From assembly GCA_964016885.1 (NCBI GenBank), contig OZ024752.1, positions 22,754,001 to 22,818,000 of the forward strand: DNA of 64,000 bases, given 5' to 3'. A program made the translations under genes and the position numbers. Within the stretch, counting starts at the first letter, position 1, and each line of letters begins with the position of its first letter. This stretch comes from Eledone cirrhosa. Its lineage: Eukaryota. This document shows, piece after piece, positions 932-60,432 of the stretch. Below the pieces are notes generated by a model. The model searched no databases. It had not been told where the DNA came from and saw only the letters and a program-made list of their open reading frames with translations.

Positions 932-3900
932 ATAGCAGAGGTACTCGGGAATGCCTGCATATTCTTCCAATGTAACACCATGCAGTAAACTTGCGGCTTC
1001 AGAATTCCTTGCAAACTACATGACTAAGGAATTAGGATCTGTGTGTATTGTCATTGAATGAGGAATTACGACACTGCTCATTCCAAAGCCTCTGGATAAA
1101 CAATATTGTTGGTTTTGCCCTGTGGTGCCACAATGAAGAGACAATCAGGGTTCCCAACCCTTGTACCAACATAGAGTTGACCATGCGAAAAGACAGGATC
1201 TACCAGATTCAAACCAACGACTTTCAATGATTGCCCTTGAGATTTATTAATGGTCATGGCAAAACTGAGCCTGATCGGAAATTGAAGTCTTTGAAATTCA
1301 AATGGCAAATCAGTTGGCTTCAGAGGTATTCTGGGAATGAAACAATTGTGATCAGCAAATTTTCCTGACATGATTGCAACATCTAGAACATTGAACATCA
1401 TATTTTTGATGTTGAGTCTGGTGCCATTACAAAGTTTTGGAGGATCCAGATTACGAATTAGCATAACCAATGCTCCAAGCTTCAGTATCAGGTTGTGTGG
1501 AGGAATTCCCGCTTGTTCAAGACTGTTCAAAAATTCAGTTGGATAGTTTACAACCTGGTCTTGAGAAGTGATTGTGTCAACTGATTTGTAGCATATTTTC
1601 TCTCCCAGTAACATCTCCAGCAGCCTTCTGTTGATTTCTTTCACAGCAACATTTTTAGGTGCTAATATTGCTTGTCACAGAGCCATTTCGGATCACATTG
1701 CCTGGTCTGAATGATTGGAAACATTCTGGCAATCAGTTCTTTTTCTGTGTCAATGATATTGCCAAATGACAACTGAATATGGTCATTGGAGTCCTTTTCA
1801 AGAAGTCCATTTCCCAATTTAAGTAGTTGGATGGCAAACTCACTGACACTTTCGTCACCAGTTAAGTGCACTCGCATGTTGGTTGTAAGGCTCAGCAGCT
1901 GAAAGTGGGTCAGACATAGGATGTTTTCAGACCTGATCAGCTCGAGTCCCTCGAAGAATTATAGACAGAGTTTGTCTGAAATCACCAGCAAGAACCATTG
2001 TCACTCCTCCCATTATGCAACTATTTTCTCTCAGATCTCTTATCGTCCGGTCCAAAGCTTCAATTACTCCTTTATGGGTCATAGTAGCTTCATCCCAAAT
2101 TATGATCTTGCATGTTTGCAGAAGCTCGCCCTTGGGTGAGTTCTTGATGTTGCAAAAAGATTGTTCATGCCGTGTGAGATCTATGGGCAGCTTAAACATG
2201 GAGTGTGCAGTTCTTCCTCCATCCAGAAGTGTTGCTGCAATGCCACTTGACGCCACAGCAAGGGCAATATGTTGCTTTTGGCGAACTTTTGCAAGCAGGA
2301 GGTTTATGAGGAATGTCTTGCCTGTGCCAGCAGGAGCATTGATGAAGAAAAGCCCTCCCCTGTCATTTTGAATGTTTTCAATGATGTTGTGGTAGGCATA
2401 TTTCTGGTCATCCATCAATCGAGGTTCATTTTCATCCACAAACTTACGCAATGCTTGAATATCGTAGTTTGTCTCCTGAAAAATGTCTTGTGCTACCTCC
2501 ATTTCTTCATCTGCCTTTGGCATCCCGCAGTTAGCTAATGTGTTATTCATTGCCTGAACGCGATGGGACAGGTCACAGAGAGCTTGATTGTAAATCCTGG
2601 GGGTATATTCCATACACGTATTGCCATGATGTCTTCGGGCTAGGTGTAGATAGTCGTCAGACATATTGTTTTTGTACTCCTGCCAGAGTAGATAAGCTTC
2701 ATCAATTCCACATGCTGTGAGCATAATAGCAAATAATTGTCTTATTTGACTGGCTACTTGAGTGATTGCTGCTTCTTCTAGGCACTTCTTCCAGTGTCCA
2801 TTGTCATGCAGGAGTCCATGCTGTTTACATGCTACTTGATATGTTGCGCACTCCCTTCCTCTGAAGCACCTAAGATCCTCAAATGACGTTGGTCCTCAAA
2901 CAGTATGCAGAAGTAGCCATAAATAAAAACATTCTCTGTTTTGGGGATGGACATTGTAAACACGCCCAATAGCATCACTTGACTTGACTTCATGACCTTC
3001 CACTAAATGACCCTGCTTCCTTCGATTACAGGTCTTGCAATTGGTCCAGGTGTAGTATGTTGGGACTCCAGCTTATTGGAGGGATCGAGCAAATTCATCA
3101 TTCTGGCAGAGTTTAAAGAAAGCAGTTAGTGTAGTGTCATGTGATGCTTGTGCCAACTGATGAGCAGTGATATCAGTGAAGTACACTCTCTGTCCATTTT
3201 CCAGATAGACTGCGAGGTTGACCACTGTTGGGTGGCATTGGTGGATATCAAATCCAAAGATTCGCCAGATAGCTTCATGGCTGGAGATGTATCTACCTGT
3301 TTGATACCGTTTGACCTCATCTAATCCACCATCATTGAGTTCTTTGTCAGTAATAAAGGTAGCCATGTCACTGCCCTTGTTGATATATTTTGTGACATAT
3401 AGGATTGCCTTGACAGAGCTACAATACTCAACATTGATATGAGCTTTTAAAAGTTTACATAACAATTTGTTGTGTGGGACGACCCACTGATTGTTTATGG
3501 TCAGCTCCTCTCCTCGAACTGTTAGGCTTGCAGTATTGCCTCCATGTTCTGATCTACGCCTACGATAAAGGGGTTATCCATTATTGTCAGTCTGAGTTTC
3601 CCGAATAAAAGCTCTAGGATAATGTTTGCTGCATTTTTGATCTTTCATGCAGAGTGAGGCTGGATTGATGACTCCATATGGACCATGAATGAGTTTGGAC
3701 TTGATGGTTTCAAAGAGCTCTGGATCACCACCTTTATCAGGCAACTCTGCTGAAATGATTTTATCAACATCATCTGGTCTGATCTTCTGCTTGCACCAGA
3801 TTAGTGTGTGAGAGTGAGGAAGACCTCTCTTCTGCCACTCAATAGTGGTCATCCAAGCACTAAGCTCACCAAAGATTCTTCCTTCTTTTAGGAGCCAGAT

Positions 3901-5500
3901 GACTCTTTTTTTTTTTTGCTATTCATGGAAAACCCGAGCAATGAGGTCATGTCGATCCTTTGGTTTTTGAATTTGAAATAATTCATTTGATATTTCCGAC
4001 CAATTTGAATTGCATGTAAATGTAATGAAGAGATCTGGCCGACCAAATTTTCTGACAGGCCATTGCATCTTGCGTACGTTCATGAATGTAACGTGGTCCT
4101 TCCGTGAAGCTTAGTATGACTGGCTGGCCAATATTTCTTGGGTCAACATCAGAATTGATGGCATCTCTTAAGGTGGATGTAGTTATCTGCCCTCAACTTA
4201 GTTTGATTCCTTCGCAGAAAACCCAATCTTTCTGTTTCAATGTTGGCATACATGTCCACCATGAACTGGCTGGTTACTTCTTTGAATCGCAGAACTTGGT
4301 TGAAGTGGTCACGTAGCATGAAATGATAAGCATAGAATTCTTTGCAGCTGATTGATCGGCCAGTCTCTTGTCCCGTTCCTGGGCTGATCTGCCGTAGCTG
4401 AAAATGATATCCATCTTGACCATTCCAAAAGATGAGCGGATATTGGAGTGTATCATAGGCTCTATGAGTTTCACAAATTCGCTCCAAATGTCCACTTCGT
4501 TTTTGCAAAACAATGTCACGTTGTTCATGCTGTTCATCAACCATTATGATTGCAACTTCATCAGTGACAGGTGCATTGAATCTGCGTTCATGTTCTGAAA
4601 CTGTGCGTTTGTCTGCCCTAATGATGATTTTACAATCTCTGGTGTTGTTCATATGCCCCAGTGCATATTTAAATATACTGACGTACATGTGATGCTGGTG
4701 AATCATTTCTTGTAACTTTATGATTATGTAGAACTGCAATCCACCATGGACATTGGTACATCTTTGTTGTGCCTGCGTTTCATTTCCACCCGTGAAGTAA
4801 ACCTGCACAAAATTGTGAGGTTACTGTGAAAGTGGCAGAAGGCCACCCATTAAGTGGTAACACTGTCCCTGAATTTTATAAGTTGTACAGAATCTAAAGT
4901 CAGTGACATTCCTGTCAGCCCCAAAAGATGTCATTTGAAAGGCAGAATTATATTTTATGATGTATTTTTTGAAGTGTCGTGCTTCTGGTGTATGCTGAAG
5001 GAGCAGATTCTTCAGAAATTCAGGAGGTTCTTGTATTGTTTTAAGGCTCATTTTGCCTTTTGAGCAGCATAGACTTGGTGTTTCTGCTGCCCACTTCTTG
5101 GCACCACAATACTGGCAGCATTTGTTCATTTTCCCAATGTTGATTTGTGGATTACTGCTGTAGTCTTTTTGGGGGTCATAAGAAAAAGCACCCATCAACC
5201 AGTTCATTTTACTTGTGGCTTGTTCTCCTGCTTGGGCAGTAGAATGATGTGCTTGATTAACATTTCATCTGATTTGCTGCTGTTCCTTAATTTGCTGTTC
5301 TCGTGTAGCAGCTGTCCTTTGTTCCCTTTCATCCAAAATGGTGTGCTCGTGCTAAAGCTGTTTGGGCTCTGTTAGCAGCTAGACGGGCATGCCAAACTTT
5401 TTCACTTTCTTCAGATTGCTGTGTTTTCTTTCTCTTAGCCTCTGAAGATGACCTTCCATATAATGATCTGGAACGTTTTCTAGGCATTTGAAGTGATATT
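932..5500 (-). mobile_element. Helitron (rolling-circle transposon), near full-length, decayed
   Basis: Collinear minus-strand ORF fragments give Rep and PIF1 helicase domains. Degenerate 3' hairpin/CTAG-like end near 932-960. 5' end not located. Confidence 0.93.
1078..5487 (-). pseudogene. Helitron RepHel protein (Zn-finger-like N-terminus, HUH Rep, PIF1 SF1 helicase), frameshifted
   Basis: Probable start MPRKRSRS (ATG 5487); CQYCGAKKW...CCSKG; Rep motifs GRPDLFITFTCN (~4010-4045), IEWQKRGLPHSH and YVTKYINKG; helicase motifs APAGTGKT, WDEATM, GDFRQTL, FAMTINKSQGQSL, FSHGQLYV. Several stops and frameshifts. Confidence 0.93.
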
Positions 5501-8102: not shown

Positions 8103-9432
8103 CATCATCATCATCATCATCAACGTTTAACGTCCGTGTTCCACGCTTGCATGGGTTTGGACGGGGGTATTCCCACTTGAGGCAAGAGTGATTGTCTTGC
8201 TCGCATAGGACTGTCTGGCAGGTTTTCTACAGTTGGATGCCCTTCCTAACACCAACCACATTTACAGTGTGGGACTGGGAGGTTTTTACCGTGTTGCCTA
8301 CACGGCCACATTACAGCGTGGACTGCGTGTTTTTTTGTCGTGACACCTACACGATTTCATTTGTTTCAGCCTGGATGTTGTGGCACCAACATAACTTTAC
8401 ATAGGAGGGGGTGGTGTGGATGGGGTGGGGGTAGTGGGACGGAGGTGTATTTTGTTAGAGATGCCTACTGGCTGTAGTAGGTTTTACTATGTATTTAGGT
8501 AAGGCGGGTCTTCTCTATTACTGAGTACCGCCAAAGGTCTCGGTCCAGTGACATTGTCTTGGAGAGGTGTAAGTGTGTGAGGTCGGAGTTTATCAGCTCG
8601 TCCCAGGATTTTCTAGGTCTGCCTTTTCCGTGGCTACCGTCTATCTTTATTGCCCTGCACTTTGTTATACAGCTATCGACTTTCATGCGCATCACGTGTC
8701 CGTACCAACGTAGCCTTCTCTCGAGTAAACAACATCTGATCCCTCTTATTTCTAATTTTTTCCTTAGTTCGTTTATGCTTTGCCGTTCACGTATATTACT
8801 ATTACACATCCAGCGGAGCATGCAAGCTTCATTCCTCTCTAGTCTGCGTATATCCTCTGCGCACAATGCCCAGGTCTCACTGCCATGCAATATAGCTGTT
8901 CGTATGCAGGCATCATACAACCTGCCTTTCATTTTTAGGGAGAACCCTTTAGCGGCTAATAGTGGTATAAGCTCTCTGAACTTTTTCCATCCAGTTCTAA
9001 CTCTAGCTACTGTACTTTCGGAGCACCCTCCCCCACTGCTGATTTTGTCACCCAGGTAACGGAAGCTGTCCACTATTTCTATAGAGCCCTCTGCGCAATT
9101 GAAAGAGTTAGTATTTTGTGGGCACTCGCTGCTACTTATTGCACCAGAGCACCGCCCACATGTAAAATCTAAGTTCTTAGTTAGCTTACCTGTGATCCCA
9201 CTACATCTTTTATGCACCCATACTTTGCATTTGGAACATAAAATGGAGTTTCTACCTACGCCTTTCCTACACACTGAGCATGGCCATTTCCCGGAAGGGA
9301 CCGGCGCCTTATTTTCTTTCCTACAAACTAGAACTTTAGTCTTAGCCAGGTTAATTTTAAGGCCTTTTGATTCTAGGCCGTGCTTCCATGTTTGGAATTT
9401 CTTCTCTAGCTCGGCCATTGATTCAGCTATGA
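8103..9432 (-). mobile_element. RTE-clade LINE family A, 5'-truncated, (GAT)n tail
   Basis: ORF 8495-9418 encodes the RT C-terminus ([41 protein letters not shown]), followed by a 3' UTR and (GAT)n tail at 8103-8121. Confidence 0.92.
8495..9418 (-). CDS. RTE LINE ORF C-terminal fragment (end of RT, PHD-like Cys finger, C-terminal domain), open frame
   Basis: 307-aa uninterrupted frame from the ORF track; 5'-truncated retrotransposon fragment, not a host gene. Confidence 0.75.
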
Positions 9433-9435
9433 GTG

Positions 9436-10326
<891 letters not shown>

Positions 10327-10429
10327 GTAAGAATTAAAATACTAGAGTGTGTTGGAGTTAAACACCCTCTTCATATTATACAAATGACAGTAAAGATATA
10401 GCTCAATGTAATTAAACAGAGCTGAAGAA

Positions 10430-10656
10430 TTATAAAAAATAAACCAAAGAAGCCTTCAATACATCAAAAGTCTTTATTAGCAAACAATGTTTCGTCCTAT
10501 TAAGGACTCATCAGGGCAAGTAAAGCTACAAGAAGCACTATCGGCCAATACAAGCCAAAAACTCAGAAGAATATAGAGTATACATCTATTAAAGCCCATT
10601 GTTGGCTAATAAAGACTTTTGATATATTGAAGGCTTCTTTGGTTTATTTTTTATAA
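10430..10656 (-). mobile_element. Short fold-back element with hammerhead core, probably derived from a Penelope-like pLTR
   Basis: ~60-bp inverted repeats (10430-10489 / 10597-10656); minus strand reads CTGATGA-GTCC-ttaata-GGAC-GAAAC. Confidence 0.6.
10480..10520 (-). ncRNA. Minimal type I hammerhead ribozyme candidate
   Basis: Minus strand: cttgcc CTGATGA GTCC ttaata GGAC GAAAC att GTT; canonical core, perfect 4-bp stem II, very short stem III. Confidence 0.6.
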
Positions 10657-12644: not shown

Positions 12645-13985
12645 CAGGGTGCGGACGATATTTGTTCGCAAGATTATTGTCTAGGAAAAAATAACACAGT
12701 AGTTTTATTTTTTAAGATATATTTATCAAACTTGTCAATTTGTCTTTATGACTTGTTCTTTCGATCTCACTTGATAAACCCGCCATTGGCTTTGATGACG
12801 GCCTCAAGGCGGCCTCGGAACCGGCTACAGGCCTTCGTCACTGTGTCCCAACTTAGGCCCCTAAAGGCACTTGTGATCCTAGCCTTCAGACCATCTTTCG
12901 TATTGCAGCTAGATCTGTTGGTGTCTCGTTCCACTGCGCCCCACACAAAGAAGTCGAGGGGGTTGGGTCAGGCGAGCTGGGAGGCCAGGTGTCAGGTGAA
13001 GTGTGTGGTCGACGAAGTTCTCTGACTTGCTAGGCTTGGGTCTTTCGGCTGGTATGGAAGGGCGCCGAGTCTTGCTGCCACATGTACGGCCTACCTGCAG
13101 CTACCTGGTCTATCCAGGGCTTTACTACCTCGCTCAGAATGTGGATGTAGCCATCAATGTTCAGCTTGAGGCCCTCGGGGAAGAAGTGAGGTGGCATGAC
13201 GTCACCTTGACTGCTGACCACACCTAACACAAATATTGTCGCTGGAAACTTTGTCTGCATGACTCTGGGCACGTCTTTGGATGAGGCAGTGAGCCACCCG
13301 TTGTTCTGGGAGTTGATCTTCTGGTCTTGGCAGAAGTTTTTCTCGTCGGAGAAAAACCACAGCATGTTTGGCTCCAGTGGGTGTTTCAACTTTTTGATCA
13401 GCTTCTTTGCGTGCTTCAGTCCCTTTTCTTGCATCGCCTTTGACAGAAATTGTACTTTCCTCATCTTGTATGAAACGTAGCGAATGTCTTCATGTACCAC
13501 CAGCCTAATGAGCTTTTCATCCACGCCTTTCTCCCTTGCAATGGCACGCATCAACTTGCTAGGTTCATTGTTGATGATATCCTGAACTTTAGCGACGAAC
13601 TTGGGCGTTCTGAAGGCGTCAGATCGTCGATCATGTGTTTTCCTCTGTGATGTTGCTTTGTAGTCGAATCCTGAATCTTTAAATTCCTTTCTGACCTTTT
13701 CCACCATTCTCCTGCTGACGCTGAGAAAGTCTGAAATTTCCTTATTTGTCCTCCCGGCGCGGATTCCAAGAAGAACTCCGTGTCTCTTCCACAAATTTGG
13801 AGGTTCAAAATTATTCATAATCAATTATTCTGAAAACAAATAATGGAAATATAGTCACTATTTTTATGAAGACAAGAGTGACAACGGAAGTAAAAAAAAT
13901 TTGCATAAAATTAGCAGTTGAAAATTGAAATTAGCAGTTGAAAATTGAAAATTGAAAATTGCGAACAAATATCCTCCACAGCCTG
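12645..13985 (-). mobile_element. Tc1/mariner DD37D (maT-type) DNA transposon, copy 1
   Basis: TIRs CAGGGTGCGGACGATATTTGTTCGCAA / TTGCGAACAAATATCCTCCACAGCCTG; TA flanks; transposase with WFFSDEKNF and WQQDSAP motifs. Confidence 0.93.
12767..13818 (-). pseudogene. DD37D transposase (premature stop near 13030)
   Basis: ORF 13030-13824 plus a disrupted C-terminus collinear with copy 2. Confidence 0.88.
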
Positions 13986-28346: not shown

Positions 28347-29637
28347 CAGGGTGCGGACGATATTTGTTTGCAAGATTACTGTCGAGGAAAAAATAACACA
28401 GTAGTTTTATTTTTTAAGATATATTTATCAAACTGAGGTCAGTTTGTCTTCATGACTTGTTCTTTCGATCTCACTTGATAAACCCGCCATTAGCTTTGAT
28501 GACGGCCTCAAGGCGGCCTTGGAACCGGCTACAGGCCTTCATCACTGTCCTCCGACTTAGGCCCCTAAAGGCACTTGTGATCCTGGCCTTCAGATCGTCT
28601 TTCGTATTGCAGCTAGATCTGTTGGTGTCTCGTTCCACTGCGCCCCACACAAAGAAGTCCAGGGGGTTGCAGTCAGGCGAGCTGGGAGGCCAGATGTCAG
28701 GTGAAGTGTGGTTGACGAAGTTCTCTGACAGCCAGGCTTGGGTCTTTCGGCTGGTATGGCAGGGCGCTGAGTTTTGCTGCCATATGTACGGCCTACCTGC
28801 AGCTACCTGGTCGATCCAGGGCTTTACTACCTCGCTCAGAATGCGGATGTAGCCAGTGGTGTTCAGCTTGAGGCCCTCAGGGAAGGAGTGAGGTGGCATG
28901 ATGTCACCTTGACTGCTGATGACACCTAAGACCAATGTTGTCGCTGGAAACTTTGTCTGCATGACTCTGGGCACGTCTTTGGATGAGACAGCGAGCCACC
29001 TGTTGTTCTGGGAGTTGATCTTCTGGTCTTGGCAGAAGTTTTTCTCGTCGGAGAAAAACCACAGCATGTCTGGCTCCAGTGGGTGTTTCAACTTGTTGGC
29101 TTCAGTCGCTTTTCTTGCATCGCCTTTGACAGAAATTGTCCTTTCCTCATCTTGTATGAAACGTAGCGAATGTCTTCATGTACCACCAGCCTAATGAGCT
29201 TTTCATCCACGCCTTTCTCCCTTCCAATGGCACGCATCGACTTGCTAGGTTCATTGTTGATGATATCCTGAACTTCAGCGACGAACTTGGACGTTCTGAA
29301 GGCGTCAGATCGTCGATAATGTGTTTTCCTCTCTGATGTTGCTGTGTAGTCAAATCCTGAATTTTCTAATTCCTTTCTGACCTTTTCCACCATTCTCCTG
29401 CTGACGCTGAGAAAGTCTGAAATTTCCTTATTTGTCCTCCCGACGCAGATTCCAAGAAGAACTCCGTGTCTCTTCCACAAATTTGGAGGTTCAAAATTAT
29501 TCATAATCAATTATTCTGAAAATAAATAATGGAAATATAGTCACTGTTTTTATGAAGACAAGAGTGACAACGGAAGTAAAAAAAATTTGCATAAAATTAG
29601 CAGTTGAAAATTGCGAACAAATATCGTCCACACCCTG
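28347..29637 (-). mobile_element. Tc1/mariner DD37D (maT-type) DNA transposon, copy 2
   Basis: 27-bp TIRs CAGGGTGCGGACGATATTTGTTTGCAA / TTGCGAACAAATATCGTCCACACCCTG, TA flanks; 37 residues between the 2nd and 3rd catalytic positions (QQ[D>N]SAP...SPDCNPLD). Confidence 0.94.
28471..29504 (-). pseudogene. DD37D transposase, frameshift near 29090, 2nd catalytic D mutated to N
   Basis: ORFs 29088-29510 and 28471-29091 are collinear with copy 1. Confidence 0.88.
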
Positions 29638-29649
29638 TATATATATATA

Positions 29650-29995
29650 TAAGAAAATGCACGAGATCCTTGGTAGTTATGTATATTTGAAAAAAGGAAA
29701 AGAAAGACTTCACTTGTATTCTATAATTTAATTTTATACTTTCATAATTTTGCTATGTAGAACTAATAAGTTCTTTGTTAACTTCTGTAGAAAGTTTTTT
29801 TTTTGAATCCTGGTTAACTTTCTGGAGAACATTTTCACATTCATTGGGAGCGATTGTCAATCAGGGTTTTAACAAAGTATGTTAAAGGACTTATTAGATC
29901 TACATAGCAAAATTATAAAATTGTAAAATTATATAATTAAATCATTATAGAATACCAACTATAAGTAAAGTCATTCTTTTCCTTTTTTTCAAACA
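29650..29995 (-). mobile_element. Fold-back element with degenerate hammerhead-like core (Penelope-like remnant)
   Basis: Imperfect inverted repeats ~29686-29782 / 29881-29993; loop on the minus strand reads TTGACAA...GTGAAA ATG TTC. Related sequence at 11310-11512 and 56480-56555. Confidence 0.45.
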
Positions 29996-30414: not shown

Positions 30415-31287
30415 TGACATCTCTTGCGTGTTTGTTTGTTTGTTCACAAACTCCTCCAGGGTACTTGGATAAGTATATTTCATTTTAATCAAAGTGTTCC
30501 CCGGCAGCACAAACCCCCACTGAAAATGTTTTCCCTTCGATTTATATGTAATTTAAGCCATAGGTAAATGACAAGCTATGATGTCTATTCACAAAATGTC
30601 AGCAAATGTCAATAATATTAAGACACCCTAATGGGGGTTTGACCCCCCTATAGTGAAGATTTTGGCCAATAAATGGAACAAGATTTCACAAACTCCTCCT
30701 ATGGTTTTGGAGATAGACCCCTATAACCATATATATTCTGAAGCTACATTGTCCAGGGTACTTGGATAAGTATATTTCATTTTAATCAAAGGGTTCCCCG
30801 GGGGCACAAACCCCCCACTGAAAAACCCCCGCTGAAATTTTTTTTGCTTTGATTTATATGAAATTTAAACCATAGGTAAATGACAAAATAAGATCCTATT
30901 CACAAAATATCAGCAAATTTCAATAATATTAAGACACCCTAATGGGGGTTTAACCCCCGCTGAAAATGTTTTCCCTTCGATTTATATGAAATTTAAACCA
31001 TAGGTAAATGACAAGATATGATGCCTATTCACAAAAGTTTTGAATTAATATTTTGAAAAAAATTATTTACAAGAAACAAAATAAGAATAAGATTTAATAA
31101 TGTAATTTTGATTTGATATATTACAAAAAATAATGTTTTCCAATTTTTCATGCATTACATTTTACATTGAGTAATATTGAAATGCAGAGTTTTTCTCCAT
31201 AAATTATATCAATGATTTAAAATCAATCATAATTTTCTTACAAAAAAAAATGTGTGAAACGCAGCAAAGCACGGGTAATTCGGCTAG
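30415..31287 (+). mobile_element. Non-autonomous Helitron-like element with internal tandem duplications
   Basis: 3' end ...GCAAAGCACGGGTAATTCGG CTAG|T; internal repeats at 30455/30752 and 30520/30960; 5' end uncertain. Confidence 0.55.
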
Positions 31288-31441
31288 TATATATATAATA
31301 TATATATATATATATGGATGTATATATAATGTATTTTGCAATACACTTTATGCTTAATTAAAAGCATTTTGAAGACCGTATGCTATTGTTTTAGAGTAGT
31401 GACAAATTCACTTACTTTAATCTCAGCAAACAGGGAAGATA

Positions 31442-31488
31442 AGCCGACAAGGCCTTGTTTCGCATTTATTGATGCTTATCAAGGCTAA
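31442..31488 (-). ncRNA. Type I hammerhead ribozyme candidate, U3:A8 core variant
   Basis: Minus strand: tAGCC TTGATAA GCAT caataa ATGC GAAAC AAGGCCTT GTC|GGCT; stems I, II and III and a GUC cleavage triplet all present. Confidence 0.7.
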
Positions 31489-31896
31489 CTACTCCCTCCT
31501 GTCTACCGAGATCACTGATGTTATATTCTTATAGAATTCTAGTAAATAATCAGGAACTGATTATACAGAGTGGTTGTTGGTCAGGCAGAAATTAAAAATT
31601 AGAATTGGAGCTCTGAAATAGCAATATATATATGGATGTATATATATAGAAATGAGTGTATATGTTGGTCACTGTTCCAAGTGAGTTCCATATAATTTCT
31701 TATAACATCTCTGAATGTTATGCTTGCTCTGTATACCATTAATGACATGGTCTTCTAAGTGAAAAGTTTACTTAGCTAGATGTCTATCTTAGATTTTGGT
31801 ATGAAATATGGGATGTGGTGTTGTCTATACAACTTCAGATTACTTACATGTTATTTAGTCCTACATGTCCTTACATTTAACAATTAATTTGTTTAA

Positions 31897-37060: not shown

Positions 37061-37276
37061 ATTTTTGAGGGAAGGGAATGTTGAATCAACCCAGTGTGTT
37101 ACTGATACTTTATTTTATTGATCCCATAAGATTGAAAGGCAAAGCTAAGCTTGTCAGGATTTGAACTCAGAATGTAAGGGGACATAACTGTAATCGTTTA
37201 TTATTGTCACAAGGGTCATTACAAAAACAAATTACAAATATGTTTGGTAGTTTACACAGAAATTGAATGGTATGAA

Positions 37277-38977
37277 AGGTCATGAAAGTAACAGAAAGAG
37301 TTATAGCACAGTTGATTAGGGACCGGGTGAAACTAGACGAGATGCAATTTGGGTTTGTACCAGGCAGAGGCACCACTGATGCCCTCTTCCTTGTGAGGCA
37401 GTTACAGGAAAAGTACCTAGCTAAAAGTAAGCCACTCTACCTGGAATTTGTCGACCTTGAGAAAGCCTTTGACAGAGTTCCACATGCTGTAATCTGGTGG
37501 GCTCTTAGAAAACTAGGAGTAGATGAATGGCTTGTGAAAGCGGTACAAGCCATGTATAGGGGAGCAGTCAGCAAAGTTAGGATTAGCAATGAGTATAGCG
37601 AGGAATTTAGCGTACAGGTTGGGCTCCACCAGGGTTCTGTTCTTAGCCCTCTCCTGTTCATCATAGTCCTGCAGACAATAACGAAGGAGTTTAAGACCGG
37701 ATGCCCATGGGAACTCCTGTATGCTGATGACCTCGCACTTATAGCTGAATCTATGGTAGAACTAGAGAAGAAATTCCAAACTTGGAAGCAGGGACTAGAA
37801 AGAAAGGGTCTCAAAGTCAACATGACAAAGACTAAGGTCCTTGTAAGTAGATGAGAAAACAGAACCCAGATCCCCTCAGGGAAATGGCCTTGCTCAGTAT
37901 GTAGGAAAGGTGTAGGTAGGAACTCCATTCTCTGCCCCAAATGCAAACAATGGGTACACAAGAGATGTAGCGGGATCTCAGGAAGCTTAATTAAGAATGT
38001 AGGCTTCACATGCAGCAGCTGTGCTGGGACAGCAAGCAGCAAAGAGCCACAGGAAACAAGTACCACCAATCTCTGGGAGGGCTCTGTAAAAACAGTAGAC
38101 AGCTTCTGCTACCTAGGTGACCGAATTAGCAGCGGAGGTGGGTGTTCAGAAAGTACAATAACTAGGGTAAGAACGGGATGGAAGAAGTTTAGGGAACTAC
38201 TACCACTGCTAGCTGCAAAAGGCTTCTCCCTCAGAATGAAAGGCAGACTGTATGATGCGTGTATACGAACAGCAATGTTACATGGTAGTGAGATCTGGGC
38301 GCTGTCTGTGGAAGACTTGCATAGATTAGACAGAAATGAAGCCTGCATGCTCCGATGGATGTGTAACAGTAATATACGTGAACGACAAAGCATAAATGAA
38401 TTGAGAGAGAGACTGAGCATAAGAGGAATCAAATGCTGTGTGCAGGAGAGGCGGTTGCGCTGGTATGGACATGTGATGCGCATGAAGGATGACAGCTGCA
38501 TAAAAAAGTGCAGAGCACTAGAAGTCGATGGAAACTGCGGAGTGGGGAGACCCAAGATGACCTGGCATGAGGTGATAAAAGCCGACCTTACCCAATTACA
38601 CCTCTCAAAGGCTACACACGACCGTGACCTCTGGCGTCACGCAGTAATACAGAGTACCCGACCTCCCATGGGTACAAGCTGAAGCATATAGACATTATGC
38701 CCCCACACCCTCCCACTGCAAGGTGGTCGTGGAGGAGCCACGGCAAAAAAGCACCCAGCCCACACTGTAAAGTGGACGTGTAGGCGCCACGAAAAAGCAC
38801 CCAGCACTCACTGTAAATGAGGTTGGTGTTAGGAAGGGCATCCAGCTGTAGAAATCAAGCCAAATCAGTTCCTGTATGAGCAAGGCATGGTCAGTCGACC
38901 AGACACTGCCCACAACAGGACAACCTGTCTAACCCATGCTAGCGTGGAAGAACAGACGTAAAACGGTGATGATGATG
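37277..38977 (+). mobile_element. RTE LINE family B, 5'-truncated (RT, PHD-like finger, 3' UTR)
   Basis: MQFGFVPGRGTTDA, FVDLEKAFDRVP, GLHQGSVLSPLLF, LLYADDL; one stop at 37852; [11 protein letters not shown]; (GAT)n tail. Confidence 0.94.
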
Positions 38978-45113: not shown

Positions 45114-45871
45114 TTAATAATAATCTCAATGGCAAAATTGGCCTCGGTTTGATTTGAACTCAGAGTGCAGCGAGCTGGAACAGATACTGCAAATAATTTT
45201 GGCCTATGTTCTGATGACTTTGCTAATTTTTCATCTATCTAGGCTTACATTGTCATTTGTAACCTCGATTTTATTTACACAATGGGGTTAGATTTGAAGG
45301 GAATTTGGCTGCTATTTCTTGCAAGTCAGGTGACCATTGGGAGGCCTAAGACATTGGCTTGCAAAATATTTTATCTCCCTTGTTGACACTCTAACATTCA
45401 ACTGCTTCTGGTAATAATAAAATGTATATCAGATTACCTTAATAAATCTAGTCTGCTGATTATTGCTAAAATGTGTTTACTTACTTAGCAATGTTGACCT
45501 TGGTTCTGTTTCTTAGTCATAGCTACATACTCTCAAATATCAGTCTTAAGGTATATTGACATATTCAAAGAGAATTATTAATTGTTTTGTTTTTTTAACA
45601 CTCCCATTCACTCAGAGGAGTAACTGCTTCCTATTATATTCCACATATTTTTACATATTTTATATATTTTTGTACCTGCAATTTGTACACTTGCATTCTG
45701 TTATATATATATAATTTCCAGCCCACCCTTGCAAGCAGGGAAAAAGCGGACATTAAATGAAATGATGAAAATGATGATGATGATATAGTGAAAACTTGGA
45801 CGGGAACAAAAACAGAGGCAGTACAAATAAAAGTTTATTAGGTTCACGCTCTTGAGAGAGTGGGGAGGGGG

Positions 45872-45912
45872 GAGACGACGTTTCTGGCATAAGCTCTTCA
45901 TCAGGAGAAAAG
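45872..45912 (-). ncRNA. Minimal hammerhead ribozyme of the Penelope-like terminal repeat
   Basis: Minus strand: ttctc CTGATGA agagcttatgcca GAAAC GTC, in the expected position downstream of the PLE ORF; stem II is imperfect. Confidence 0.6.
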
Positions 45913-48121
45913 TGGGTAGGAAGAGAGTTCCGAGGGTGGGTGGGGTGGGTGGGGTGGAGAGACATTTAGAAGGGGGGGGGGGAGAAAAGGGAGGAAAAAC
46001 GGTAGAAGGGGTACAAATAAAAATAAACATAAAGATAAACAAGTGGCGGAAGGGTGTGAGGCATGTAGAGGTGGTGGCGGGTGGTGTAGGGAGAGGGAGG
46101 CGGGGGGTCCGAGCGGGGAGGGCTGAAGGTGGTGTTTGTGTAGATGTACGAGTGTGTGTGTGTGTGTGTGTGCGTATGTGAATGTGAGATTTGGGGGAAG
46201 AACGAGGTTCTATGTTCAGGAAAAGGTGTGTGCGTGGGGTGGGGTGTAGGTCAGTGTGTGTGTGGATGGGGAGGGGGAAGAGGGGTGGGGGGAGGGGGAG
46301 TGTGGATTCCGGAGGCTGAGTGTGAATATGTGGGGGTATGCACGTGTGTTGGTGTTTATACGTAGTGTGGATGTAGGTGGCATGGTTCTAAAAAAAATTG
46401 TGAGTGTATGTTCGTGGGTAAGTTCTTAAGATAGTTCCGTGGAGTGTGCGATGAGATGCTGGATATTTTTCATGTTATGGAGTGGATAGCTGGAACGATG
46501 TCCAGTGGTTTGGAATCCAAACGTTGTGGTGGTCGGAAGTGGAGAGATGTAGGATGCGCGCGCAGCAGGAAGTGGTCAGAGGGTCAAGGCAGGGTGAATA
46601 GATAGCAGTAGAGGAGAATGACAGGTGGAGAAATGGTCAGTGTGTGGTGAGGACTGTGTGTCTGTGTGCGGAGGTGCGGTGGACAGGGGAAAGGATGGGT
46701 AGGTGTGAAAGGTGGGGGGATGGGGTGTGTATTAGTAGAGGTGTTATAGTGGGATGTGTGTGTGTGAAGGGGTGTAGGTGGAGCGGGGAGAGGGAGAGAA
46801 AAGGTGTTGGGGACGGAGGAGGGAGTGTAGTGTACTGGTGTGTGTGTGTGCGTGTTTGGATGAGTGTGTGTGTGGTAAAGGGGGTGTTAGTGGGTGTTAG
46901 TATACTGGAAAGGAAAGGGTTGAATGAGGGTGTGTAAGTGGGGGTTAGTGGTGGTTGGGTGTGTGGAGTGGGTGGTGTATGTAGGTGTGGGTGTGTGGGT
47001 GTAAAGGTGTGTGTGCGTGGGGTCGGGGGGATGTTAGTGGTATTAGTTGTGGGTGAGTGTTAGTGGTGGTAGTAGGGTGTGCGGATAGTGTGAGTGCATG
47101 TATATATGTACATGTGGGTGCGTGCATGATAGGGGGGAGGGGTGGGGATGTTAGTATTGTTAGTTGTGGGGTGGGCCAAGGAAAAGGAGGAGTGTGTTAG
47201 TGGGGGATCTGTGTGTGGGGGAAACATGGCGGTCGAAGGCTAAAGGAATAGGGGTGGGGTGTTCAGGCCGGGAGGTGTGTGTAGGTCTGTAGGGTGAAGA
47301 TGGTGCGTTGTCCGACCGTGAGGCAGGTGGCGGTTGTTCCGTGGCATTGGTGTAGGCCACAGACTGAGGTGGTGGGCAGAATGTCCAGGGGAGCCAAAGT
47401 GGCGGGCGATAGGGGAACTCCCGCCGAGACGGTCCGCCAGTCGGTGGGTTTGAAGAAGGCGGAGGTGACGAGGGAGATGTCTAAGAAGTGGACGTGGGTG
47501 GTGGAGATAGAGGTGGTGAAGTGGAGGGATGGGTGGAAGGAGCAGAAGGAGAGAAAGGAGTCGAGCTGTTCTCGGGTGAGGGTTGTGGCTCCGATACAGT
47601 CGTCGATGTAACGACTGTACAGTTCGGGCGTGGGGCCGGTGTACTGGGCAAAGATTTGGGCCTCAACATGGCCAACGAAAAGGTTGGCATAATTTGGGCC
47701 CATTCTTGTGCCATGGCTACCCCTGTTGGTAAAACTCACCCGAGAAGGAGAAGCAGTTGAAGGATGAGGACCAGCTCGGCGAGGCGAAGGAGGGTGGGGG
47801 TGGAGGGGATGGTGGAGGGGCGAAGTTCGAGGTAGTGCCTGAGGGCATGTAGGCTGTCGGCGTGGGGGATGACAGTATAGAGGGACTTGATATCTAGGGT
47901 GAAGAGGAGGGGGTGTGGGCCGGGTGGGAAAGTGAAGGAGTCGAATAGGCAAAGGGCATGGTTGGTGTCGGAGATGTGAGAGGCGAGGGTGGTGACGAGG
48001 GGGGCAAGGATGGAGTCAAGAAAGGCGGATATGAGTTCTGTGGGGCAGTTGCAAGCGGAGACGATGGGAGCGGCCCGGGTTGTCGTGGTTTGTGGAGTTT
48101 GGGGAGGAAGTAGATAGTAGG

Positions 48122-48486
48122 ATGTCGTTTCCAGGATAGGTTTTACACTCTCATTAAGAGGCGGGTATATGTGCCATCCAATCTCCTCTCAAGTTGTCTA
48201 AAATCTATGGCAAACTCCCTCGAGCCTCTGCCCTTCTAAAATCCCAGAGAGCTCAATTTGCTGGCCACTGTCACCGTGCCAGCAATGAAATCATATCCGC
48301 TCTCTTGCTCTGGAACCCTGACTCCAGCCTGACTATGAGTAGGAAGCTGTCATTCCCTGACGTTATCTCTAGGGATACGGGAATCAGTAGACAGGACCTG
48401 GGGGCAGCGATGGGGGACAGGGAATTCTGGGGCATGAGAGTGAGATCCATCATCTCGACAGTAGTCGACGAATGATGATGATGATG
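48122..48486 (+). mobile_element. RTE-related LINE 3' fragment inserted in the PLE
   Basis: RAQFAGHCHRA...LLLWNP...DREFW C-terminus, (TGA)n tail, 10-bp TSD AGATAGTAGG (48112 and 48487). Confidence 0.8.
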
Positions 48487-52456: not shown

Positions 52457-54153
52457 ATCATAATCATCATCATCATCACCGTTTTACGCTAGCATGGGTT
52501 AGACGAGTTGTCCTGTTGTGGGCAGTGCCAGGTCGGCTGACCTTGTCTTGCTCATACGGGAACTGATTCTGGCTTGATTTCTACAGCTGGATGCCCTTCC
52601 TAGCACCAACCTCATTTTCAGTGAGTGCTGGGTGCTTTTTCCGTGGCGCCTGCACGTCCACTTTACAGTGTGGGGGCATATTGTCTATATGCTTCAGCTT
52701 CGGCTTGTACCCGTGGGGGGTCGGTCGGGTCTTCTGTATTACTGCGTGATGCCAGAGGTCACGGTCGTGTGTCATCGCCTTTGAGAGGTGTAATTGGGTA
52801 CGGTCGGCTTTTATCACCTCATCCCAGGTCTTCTTGGGTCTCCCCACTCCGCGGTTTCCATCGACTTCTAGTGCTCTGCACCTTTTTATGCAGCTGTCAT
52901 CCTTCATACGCATCATATGTCCATACTTATGCAACCACCTCTCCTGCACACAGCATTTGATTCCTCTTATTCTCAGTCTCTCTCTCAATTCATTTATGCT
53001 TTGCCGTTCACGTATATTACTATTACACATCCATCGGAGCATGCAGGCTTCGTTTCTCTCTAATCTATGCAATTCTTCCACAGACATCGCCCAGGTCTCA
53101 CTACCATGTAACATTGCCATTTGTATGCACGCATCATTCAGTCTGCCTTTCATTTTGAGGGAGAAGCCTTTTGCAGCTAGCAGTGGCAGTAGCTCCCTGA
53201 ACTTCTTCCATCCCGTTCTTACCCTAGTTATTGTACTTTCTGAACACCCACCTCCACTGCTAATTCGGTCACCTAGGTAGCAGAAGCTGTCTACTGTTTC
53301 TACAGAGCCCTCCCAGAGTTTGGTGGTACTTGTTTCCTGTGGCTCTTTGCTGCTTGCTGTCCCAGCACAACTGCTACATGTGTAGCCTACATTCTTAGTT
53401 AAGCTTCCTGAGATCCCGCTACTTCTCTTGTGCACCCATTGTTTGCATTTGGGGAAGAGAATGGAGTTCCTACCTACACCTTTCCTACATACTGAGCAAG
53501 GCCATTTCCCTGAGGGGATCTGGGTTCTGTTTTCTCCTCTACTTACAAGGACCTTAGTCTTTGTCAGGTTGACTTTGAGACCCTTTCTTTCTAGCCCCTG
53601 CTTCCAAGTTTGGAATTTCTTCTCTAGTTCTACCATAGATTCAGCTATAAGCGCGAGGCCATCTGCATACAGGAGTTCCCATGGGCATCCGGTCTTAAAC
53701 TCCTTCGTTATTGTCTGCAGGACTATGATGAACAGGAGAGGGCTAAGAACAGAACCCTGGTGGAGCCCAACCTGTACGCTAAATTCCTCGCTCTACTCAT
53801 TGCTAATCCTAACTTTGTTGACTGCTCCCCTATACATGGCTTGTACAGCTTTCACAAGCCATTCATCTACTCCTAGCTTTCTAAGAGCCCGCCAGATTAT
53901 AGCACGGGGAACTCTGCCAAAGGCTTTCTTGAGATCGACGAATGTCAGGTAGAGTGGCTTACTTTTAGCTAGGTACTTTTCCTGTAACTGCCTCACCAGG
54001 AAGAGGGCATCAGTGGTGCCTCTTCCTGGCACAAACCCAAATTGCATCTCATCTAGTTTCACCCGGTCCCTAATCAACTGTGCTATAACTCTTTCTGTTA
54101 CTTTCATGACCTGGTCCATCAGCTTTATACCTCTATTGTTTCCTCTATCTACT
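52457..54153 (-). mobile_element. RTE LINE family B, 5'-truncated
   Basis: RGIKLMDQVMKV, QFGFVPGRGTTDA, HQGSVLSPLLF, LLYADGL (YADD mutated), PHD-like finger, C-terminal domain, 3' UTR and (GAT)n tail. Confidence 0.93.
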
Positions 54154-54171
54154 GCATCACACACACACACA

Positions 54172-54246
<75 letters not shown>

Positions 54247-55377
54247 GTGTGTGTGTGTGTGTTTCTCATAGCTATATATAGCTTACTTAACATTTTCTTC
54301 TGACTCATAGGAATAGTTTGATTTTGGTTGTGGTGTATGGTAATATTAATACGTTTTTCTTTGCGTCATGTAATCCTAAATGCACTGTTCAAGGGTACTA
54401 CTGAAATATTATCTTCTGGTCAAACACTTGATTTCTTACAAACACATATGTATTTAATGTGTGTGTTTGTGTGTCATATGTATTGAGTCCTCCTTCAATT
54501 AATGTTTGAACATTCTATGCTTTTGAGTAAAAAAAGATGGAGTAATGTTGAAGTGTAGACAAAGAGGACACATAGATGGCATTTATTTATCTATGGTATA
54601 TGCCTATGAAGGTGTGTGGCTGAGTGGTTAGAGAATTGGATTCATGATCTTGAGGTTGTGCGTTTGATTCCTGGACCGGGTGATGCGTTGTCTTTGAGCA
54701 AGACACTTTATTTCATGTTGCTCCTTCTACCTGGATTTACGACCGATAGATAGTATTAGTAATTGGAAAGACCATTGGAAACATTGTTTCCTTGATCCGA
54801 TTTGACGAAAGTCGATCGATATGCCTATGCTGGCATAAAAGTCAATGTTTGGAGCTTGAAAATATCTCTCCAAAACCAAGGGTCGACTTGTCTGCTGAAT
54901 ATAAAATGTGAACCTTTTTCACTGTTTATCCCTCAGTGTTAAAGGTTCACATTGTGAAACTGCCTGCCTAACACTTGTTATATACCACTTACCATAACTC
55001 TAGCAGCCCACCACAATTATTTCTTACTGAATCTCATATTTGTTAAGTCTATTTATAGATTATAAATAGACTTAACAAATAGATTATAATAATATGACTT
55101 GCCGTAACTTATAGGGTAAGTTACCATAGGTATGTTACGGTTAGGCTAGGCTGGTTTACTCACTTGTGACAAGTGTTTTAGAAGTGTTTTAGCCTTTAGC
55201 GCGCCACTATATTTTTTGAATTATTTCCCCTGCAACTACCTTATTTTGGAGGGGGGGGGGGGCGTCTTATCTGGCGAATATAGGCATAAACTTGAATTAC
55301 ACCTTAGAATTTTATACAGTATTTATTAATTCATTTATTTAATTGTCAACTAACTGATTGATGGATTAATTACCTAA

Positions 55378-60200: not shown

Positions 60201-60432
60201 TAATTGTTTATTGCATATGTATTTCTGTTACATGGTTATTCATGTGACTTCATGAGATTGTTACGCATTCATAGATGCAGTTATACAATCATTGGGATAT
60301 GTTGTTGGTCGTGTATAACTATGCTGTAGTGATCCCAATGATTGCATAACTGCATTTATGATTGCATAAGAATCTGATGAAGTCACATGAATAACCATGT
60401 AACAGAAATACATATCATGCAATAAAGAATTA
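60201..60432. repeat. ~98-bp-arm inverted repeat with hammerhead-like cores
   Basis: Arms 60201-60298 / 60332-60432; plus strand CTGATGA (60374), stem, GAAA (60405). Confidence 0.8.

Follow-up and report, generated by a model that had tools for sequence, protein, structure and literature searches.

The question raised by this locus is whether the hammerhead-like sequence on the minus strand of Eledone cirrhosa contig OZ024752.1 is a genuine ribozyme and, if so, what kind of element carries it and how that element spreads. In the 64,000-nt stretch analyzed here (the window; positions 22,754,001 to 22,818,000 of the contig), the motif reads AGCC-TTGATAA-GCAT(caataa)ATGC-GAAA-CAAGGCCTTG-TC|GGCT from 31486 to 31442, as a sequence-only reading had claimed, and the three stems and palindromic stem III that it described are present, with stem I extending to 31512/31420. 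The motif is that of a type I hammerhead, comprising a UUGAUAA core, a 4-bp stem II, GAAA, a 12-nt palindromic stem III, and a GUC triplet. The features of the ribozyme and the surrounding unit, with the evidence for each in parentheses, are as follows.

31289..31308, no strand assigned: (TA)n target run at the 3' end of the element (TA run at 82 of 103 3' ends)
31309..31626, minus strand: full 318-nt retrozyme unit of subfamily A1, 3' end at 31309 (sequence period; 95 to 99% identical full-length copies and tandems elsewhere in the genome)
31420..31512, minus strand: type I hammerhead ribozyme with extended stem I (descriptor, Rfam match, folding, covariation in 37 copies)
31445..31446, minus strand: predicted cleavage site GUC|G, between 31446 and 31445 (hammerhead consensus)
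31447..31458, no strand assigned: 12-nt palindromic stem III, predicted to form the double-hammerhead helix across units, its 5' half predicted to block the monomer core (folding)
31462..31475, minus strand: stem II GCAU/AUGC with loop CAAUAA (both-side changes in all 4 pairs)
31476..31482, minus strand: catalytic core UUGAUAA, with U3:A8 replacing C3:G8 (U:A in 107 of 112 A-type cores, C:G in 51 of 58 B-type cores)
31598..31626, minus strand: first ~29 nt of the unit, which form a PLE-type "tail" extension at other loci; the 3' end of the window copy is without a tail (42 of 109 arms end at unit position 23 to 46)
31627..31646, minus strand: 5'-truncated preceding unit, the last 20 nt of which gave the apparent "direct repeat"; equivalent to the partial tandem of a PLE pseudo-LTR (pLTR) (same 20-mer at tandem junctions of other loci)

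The position of the cleavage site is presumed from the established hammerhead consensus. The motif at 31420..31512 was the sole complete match to the hammerhead descriptor in the window, and a stricter descriptor gave one match in the real window compared with one match in 100 second-order Markov windows. The 111-nt ribozyme region folded with a z score of -6.4, none of 200 shuffles being equally stable. A match to Rfam Hammerhead_HH9 was obtained (E = 0.008) at 20.7 bits, below the gathering score of 52, the Rfam models assuming C3:G8; when the entire window was scanned, all of the 150 best among 344 Rfam matches were to microRNA models on TA repeats. Using an alignment of 37 copies picked to span the subfamilies, it was found that homologous copies keep the stems, with 93% of cells paired, both-side changes in 14 of the 26 pairs, and a covariation score of 0.47, whereas slid controls reached 0.12 at most (relatedness among copies is not taken into account by the shuffle control). 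The sequence follows the type I core pattern (CUGANGA / GAAA / UH) with a 3:8 pair, and it combines three stems, an open stem I, and covariation; the window ribozyme also has a 6-nt loop 2 and, within stem I, an internal loop. Judged by its sequence, the window motif is a genuine type I hammerhead. The ATTAAA that follows the ribozyme, remarked on in the earlier reading, is not supported as a signal: it is not kept in subfamilies A3 or B, and the element continues for another ~110 nt to an end that lacks poly(A).

To identify how widespread the element is, the genome assembly (3.0 Gb in 1,796 contigs) was searched. A DNA search with the unit gave 1,734 candidates, the full-length copies being mostly 95 to 99% identical (among the 40 scored), while the ribozyme pattern had 3,125 matches (6 for the reversed control) and a 26-nt 3'-end pattern had 8,974 exact matches (0 for the control). 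Copies are spread across many contigs. The unit is 318 nt at the window locus and 310 to 324 nt in other subfamilies, and a search for tandem copies, which had been proposed as a check, found up to 6.5 near-identical units in tandem in one arm. The two ~20-bp repeats at 31309 and 31627, which had been taken to flank the insertion, were rejected as a target-site duplication. They lie one 318-nt period apart, and the same 20-mer recurs at tandem junctions of unrelated loci; thus, they are the unit's own end, repeated, and the window copy is 1.06 units long. A duplication inside (TA)n would be invisible. Contigs of four sequencing runs showed the high copy number and the tandem junction only, with no empty site among them. 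The window locus contains no non-repetitive open reading frame (ORF) of at least 150 amino acids, only short frames. A type I hammerhead, short dispersed tandem units, many copies, and no protein-coding capacity are together the traits of a non-LTR retrozyme.

To examine how copies are inserted, the first 100 3'-end matches by position on one contig were taken, which corresponded to 69 loci, of which one duplicate was dropped to leave 68; arms of at least 60 nt were counted (n = 109). The 3' ends of 61 arms lay at the unit end and 42 at position 23 to 46 of the next unit, with 6 elsewhere, giving a fixed 3' register in 103 of 109 arms; tail length had its mode at 29 to 30 nt in the 42 tailed arms. 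TA runs adjoined 82 of the 103 regular 3' ends. The 5' ends, by comparison, were scattered along the unit. Inverted arm pairs joined 5' to 5' were found at 33 of the 68 loci, with a tail on exactly one arm in 27 of these 33. Arms at least one unit long numbered 35 of 104, and those passing the unit start continued into another unit, up to the 6.5 units noted above. Partial tandems, an inverted 5'-truncated copy, a 30- to 40-bp tail often at one end only, and a preference for (TA)n are features of PLEs described by Craig et al. 2021 (PMC8557442). The unit shares the partial tandems, the inverted 5'-truncated arm, the one-sided tail, and the microsatellite target; the ORF for reverse transcriptase (RT) and GIY-YIG nuclease expected of an autonomous PLE is absent from it. 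This footprint, together with the lack of any ORF of note, indicates a non-autonomous element, and the earlier description of an ORF-less hammerhead-bearing retroelement therefore holds. At a single locus (L109:1481-1781), both inverted arms begin at the cleavage site and are joined at a palindromic AGCT.

In our assessment, this is probably a non-autonomous PLE (non-LTR retrozyme) with a 318-nt ORF-less type I hammerhead unit in thousands of copies, whose multimers are predicted to self-cleave as double hammerheads, whose monomers likely circularize, and which is likely copied into (TA)n by the RT and GIY-YIG nuclease of an autonomous PLE. Unit size, copy number, 3' register, TA targets, partial tandems, 5' inversions, the one-sided tail, and covariation of the stems and the 3:8 pair support this from the genomic copies. 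We infer the transcription, the cleavage, the ligation to a circle, the priming in a TA-rich register, and the identity of the partner, in a cycle that follows the model of Cervera and de la Peña 2020 (PMC7229834). Read-through transcription of tandem units would produce multimeric RNA, in which the palindromes of tandem units would pair across units (on) and allow double-hammerhead cleavage. Ligation of the monomer would then give a self-locked circle (off), with core positions 2.3 to 5 paired to the 5' half of the palindrome. The PLE would prime reverse transcription at the TA-rich register, ~136 nt downstream of where the RNA would be cleaved, and the RT and GIY-YIG nuclease of the autonomous PLE would insert the product into (TA)n microsatellites.

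The genomic copies bear on which RNA could have served as the template. Of the 79 arms reaching the cleavage site, 75 run through it, which, with the 6.5-unit arm, fits a circular or an uncleaved template. No excess of 5' ends was found at the cleavage site (4 observed versus 2.8 expected; P = 0.31), which means that no direct trace of cleavage can be seen in the genome. The crossing arms and the missing 5'-end peak exclude a cleaved linear monomer as the main template, and a circle and an uncleaved multimer would both fit. Divergence within one arm was 3.7%, compared with 4.4% between opposite arms (28 loci), a difference that is not clear; thus, similarity among units does not show a circular template. 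For Xenopus retrozymes, 1 of 9 dimers is reported to have cleaved in vitro (bioRxiv 10.64898/2026.07.22.740005).

In the minimum-energy fold of the single ribozyme, which was not the active one, the 5' half of the stem III palindrome was paired to core positions 2.3 to 5. The probability of this blocking helix exceeded 0.5 in 24 of the 31 copies analyzed (from the 37 aligned) and was 0.99 in the circular monomer of the window copy. The helix covaries at 3:15.4 (C:G 13, U:G 10, U:A 9, other 4) and at 2.1:15.5 (U:A 20, C:G 8, U:G 6, other 2), giving the stepwise series C:G, U:G, U:A at the former and U:A, U:G, C:G at the latter; it is weak in part of subfamily A3, and the covariation rests on few independent changes. 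For six natural tandem pairs (10 loci were tried, of which 6 yielded a pair), the double hammerhead cost +0.6 to +7.1 kcal/mol, compared with +12 to +20 kcal/mol for two monomer-active folds, under an energy model that omits tertiary stabilization of the active fold. Dimeric cleavage through the stem III palindrome, as envisaged in the sequence-only reading, is therefore favored by the folding model, which predicts a self-blocked monomer and a tandem dimer active as a double hammerhead. From the complementarity of the core start to the palindrome, it would follow that the monomer circle locks itself off and that multimers alone cleave. It is possible, though we hold this only tentatively, that the retrozyme carries such an on/off switch, in which the core start has been kept complementary to the palindrome by stepwise compensatory changes, the PLE RT primes at a fixed TA-rich register and rolls round the locked circle, and a C3:G8 to U3:A8 switch made twice was part of tuning the lock. 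The self-blocking helix is specific and cheaply testable.

Whether the U3:A8 pair of the window ribozyme reflects decay or compensation was addressed with cores from the loci retrieved by that stage, duplicated loci removed (n = 170). Subfamily B, a sister group with the canonical CUGAUGA, was reached through one divergent match (L043; 73% identical). Positions 3 and 8 formed a Watson-Crick pair in 162 of the 170 cores, with U:G in 4 and other combinations in 4. The 112 A-type cores carried U:A (n = 107), C:G (n = 2), U:G (n = 2), and U:C (n = 1), and the 58 B-type cores carried C:G (n = 51), U:A (n = 2), U:G (n = 2), and C:U (n = 1), with 2 gapped; the gapped entries include one duplicated locus (L108, L134) that has a C3:A8 core together with a deletion in stem I. 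On a tree of 37 rows (those of the 68 loci that were long enough), built with positions 3 and 8 masked, the distribution of U:A and C:G needs two changes; the tree is unrooted, so their direction is not readable. A single U:A clade was rejected (AU p = 0.0001; p = 0.004 with the ribozyme removed), in a test run after the first tree had been seen. The two switches, along with the C3:G8 sister subfamily, uphold the view put forward earlier that U3:A8 is compensatory rather than the product of decay.

Natural U3:A8 cores have been published (Perreault 2011; PMC3088659), the same source indicates that the 3:8 pair matters in the catalytic fold, and ~1,300 U3-A8 matches have been reported in Schistosoma PLEs (PMC4209133). 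In a mutational scan of a type III hammerhead, a G:C swap alone rescued the 3:8 pair, other double mutants having low activity (PMC9901934), so U3:A8 may be slow. With its C3:G8 and U3:A8 sister ribozymes, the family supplies a natural comparison; most of such a family is overlooked when descriptor or Rfam scans insist on CUGANGA.

The search for the proposed partner, a PLE RT with the same terminal repeat, was unsuccessful, as no autonomous PLE with a homologous pLTR was found at the 64 free 5' ends in 128 loci (of thousands). PLEs with RT and GIY-YIG, likewise at TA runs, are present in the genome and lie within 1.5 kb of ~12 of the first 90 loci, a raw count to be read in light of both element types favoring TA runs. 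One alternative, which we judge distinctly improbable, is that the unit is the terminal repeat (a solo or truncated pLTR) of an autonomous PLE yet to be found, and that the copies are its 5'-truncated insertions and not a mini-element that replicates independently. The integration marks are the same as those of autonomous PLEs, Xenopus retrozymes are reported to be homologous to pLTRs (bioRxiv 10.64898/2026.07.22.740005), and the unit is joined to PLE coding sequence at two loci, L046 and L057. At the former (L046:524-2023), a chimeric inverted insertion has the 3' half of a GIY-YIG PLE on one arm and a retrozyme dimer on the opposite arm, and short pieces of the retrozyme lie where the arms meet; template switching would account for this arrangement, but so would a later insertion with deletion. 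However, that PLE carries its own pLTR, unrelated in sequence, and its own hammerhead-like motif. In addition, 35 of 104 arms reach at least one unit, and arms passing the unit start enter another unit. The 64 free 5' ends do not share any upstream sequence that is joined to the unit at one common position, and comparison of the units with 7 PLE protein pieces gave no significant similarity. The same alternative could draw on splice-like motifs on either side of the unit junction, namely, GTAAGT (31415-31410) and TTTCAG (31618-31613) on the minus strand, which are kept in most subfamilies and which we take to be donor-like and acceptor-like, respectively; they could belong to a retained PLE-type intron. 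A search with one junction pattern for spliced genomic copies joining the two gave 0 exact matches, which says little since PLEs retain introns. An ATG-initiated frame of ~28 codons also runs across the tandem junction (31375-31309 and then 31626-31600, minus strand) and ends at the tail end in A1, A4, and B. It shows several synonymous-looking changes by eye, varies with TA-run length, and may be a relic of a PLE ORF start.

A different objection concerns catalysis, in that the element could be mobile and the ribozyme dispensable, with PLE machinery spreading it from tandem transcripts that stay uncleaved and the hammerhead kept only as a fold or as a very slow cleaver. This is unlikely in our view. 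The lack of a 5'-end peak at the cleavage site with 75 of 79 arms crossing, the predicted inactivity of the monomer, the low activity reported for PLE hammerheads (PMC4209133) and for 3:8 double mutants other than G:C (PMC9901934), and the duplicated locus with the C3:A8 core and stem I deletion are all consistent with it. In contrast, the unpaired core bases are the best kept, with 2 changes in 385 cells versus 2.3 to 4.5% elsewhere (GAAA, 1.3%), and two separate double switches preserve a 3:8 pair that is described as important in the catalytic fold (PMC3088659). Tandem arrays and inverted structures in a genome rich in palindromic repeats might also suggest a satellite or MITE, spread at the DNA level by recombination or a DNA transposase, with a chance resemblance to a hammerhead. 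That explanation is almost certainly wrong, given the polar structure (fixed 3' end and random 5' truncation), the tails on one side only, the scatter of copies across many contigs, and the fact that a tertiary pair of the RNA covaries. The non-autonomous PLE remains the reading preferred here.

As for novelty, the earlier suggestion of an unannotated class has to be set aside, as the class has already been published (PMC7229834; bioRxiv 10.64898/2026.07.22.740005; PMC4209133; PMC3088659). The literature already covers non-LTR retrozymes, their origin from PLEs, and natural U3:A8 cores; what is described here is a new family of a known class. The metazoan non-LTR retrozymes of coral, mussel, and axolotl (PMC7229834) are similarly present in thousands of copies and consist of an ORF-less, AT-rich tandem unit of 150 to 450 bp whose type I hammerhead has a palindromic stem III; a PLE RT has been proposed to mobilize them. 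The present family differs from those retrozymes, as they are described in that source, in the U3:A8 core of most subfamilies, the 12-nt palindrome, the absence of a visible target-site duplication, and the clear PLE inversions and tails; its monomer is also predicted to be self-blocked, whereas most circles there, mussel excepted, are predicted to keep their ribozyme unobstructed. A further report treats retrozymes as non-autonomous PLE derivatives occurring as monomers, dimers, and multimers, with a mean amphibian unit of 316 bp (bioRxiv 10.64898/2026.07.22.740005); its case relies on co-occurrence and pLTR homology in vertebrates, while ours relies on the integration footprint, with no homologous autonomous pLTR found. 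The minimal hammerheads of PLE pLTRs, including the U3-A8 Schistosoma Cercyon (PMC4209133), share U3-A8 covariation and a dimer-dependent cleavage model, but here stem I is long, stem II is a canonical 4 bp, stem III is 4 to 5 bp, and the host element is ORF-less. Compared with EN+ PLEs (Neptune/Nematis and Naiad; PMC8557442), which have the same partial tandems, inverted 5'-truncated arm, 30- to 40-bp tail at one end, and (TA)n targets, the unit has no RT or GIY-YIG ORF and is just 318 nt. In a literature search of incomplete coverage, no paper was found that combines retrozymes with inversions and tails or names U3A8 mutants, and the supplements of the cited papers may include U3:A8 retrozyme families or PLE-type junctions. 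A paper on octopus repeats makes no mention of ribozymes. Retrozyme mobilization and the reason why circles escape their own ribozyme are stated to be open points (bioRxiv 10.64898/2026.07.22.740005; PMC7229834). The family, with thousands of young insertions bearing the full PLE integration footprint, provides a test case, in which the likely mode of movement of such elements can be read with unusual clarity.

Of about seven hammerhead-like loci that had been listed in the window, four, from four different families, are supported and two are not, the seventh (29850) being a core-like motif without stem I. In addition to the ribozyme at 31420..31512, the 10480 locus (core at 10514, minus strand) has a canonical core and belongs to a ~227-nt family with 2,016 candidates, whose core is preserved at 10 of 10 loci; stem I is altered in the window copy. 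At 60374 (plus strand), the core is of the minimal type, carries an extra A, and is accompanied by a long stem II; there are 833 candidates, and the motif is present at 9 of 10 loci near a match. A decayed element bearing an RT (45780-48188, minus strand) has a minimal hammerhead at its 3' end, the 45880 locus (core at 45904, minus strand); the element contains decayed PLE-like RT fragments and a long C/A-rich 3' region, and the two of its frames tested had no Pfam match. The motifs at 10514, 45904, and 60374 are hammerheads of separate PLE-type families. The 29850 locus (window 29730-29990) belongs to a family of palindromic repeats (708 candidates) in which UUGACAA-stem II-GAAA recurs, a motif that resembles a U3:A8 core and is without stem I; this is possibly a second, decayed U3:A8 family. 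The remaining two candidates are not supported, 11500 because it has A3:A8 and no valid core, with no family found among the loci retrieved, and 60520 because it is a palindrome without a core. The hammerhead density reflects a PLE-rich genome, a pattern also reported for other animals (PMC4209133). Elsewhere in the genome, L007, L022, and L051 share a repeated motif, TTGAAAA-GCAG..CTGC-GAAACCGG-TA, which looks like a further U3:A8 hammerhead family.

The window also contains a number of other mobile elements. Copies of a non-LTR retrotransposon RT occupy 8495-10333, 37276-38682, and 52581-54365, the first of which is interrupted by a long TA array adjoining the 10480 element. Broken Helitron-like Rep/PIF1 helicase frames are present at 1078-4820 on the minus strand (Pfam PIF1, E = 1e-51), and remnants of Tc1/mariner-like transposases lie at 13030-13824 and 28471-29175 (minus strand), with a weak DDE_3 match for the second. 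Finally, an element with internal repeats at 30500-31290 (plus strand) ends in a short hairpin and CTAGT before a TA run, an end that we take to resemble that of a Helitron 3' terminus, and L029 contains a second copy with an identical end point.
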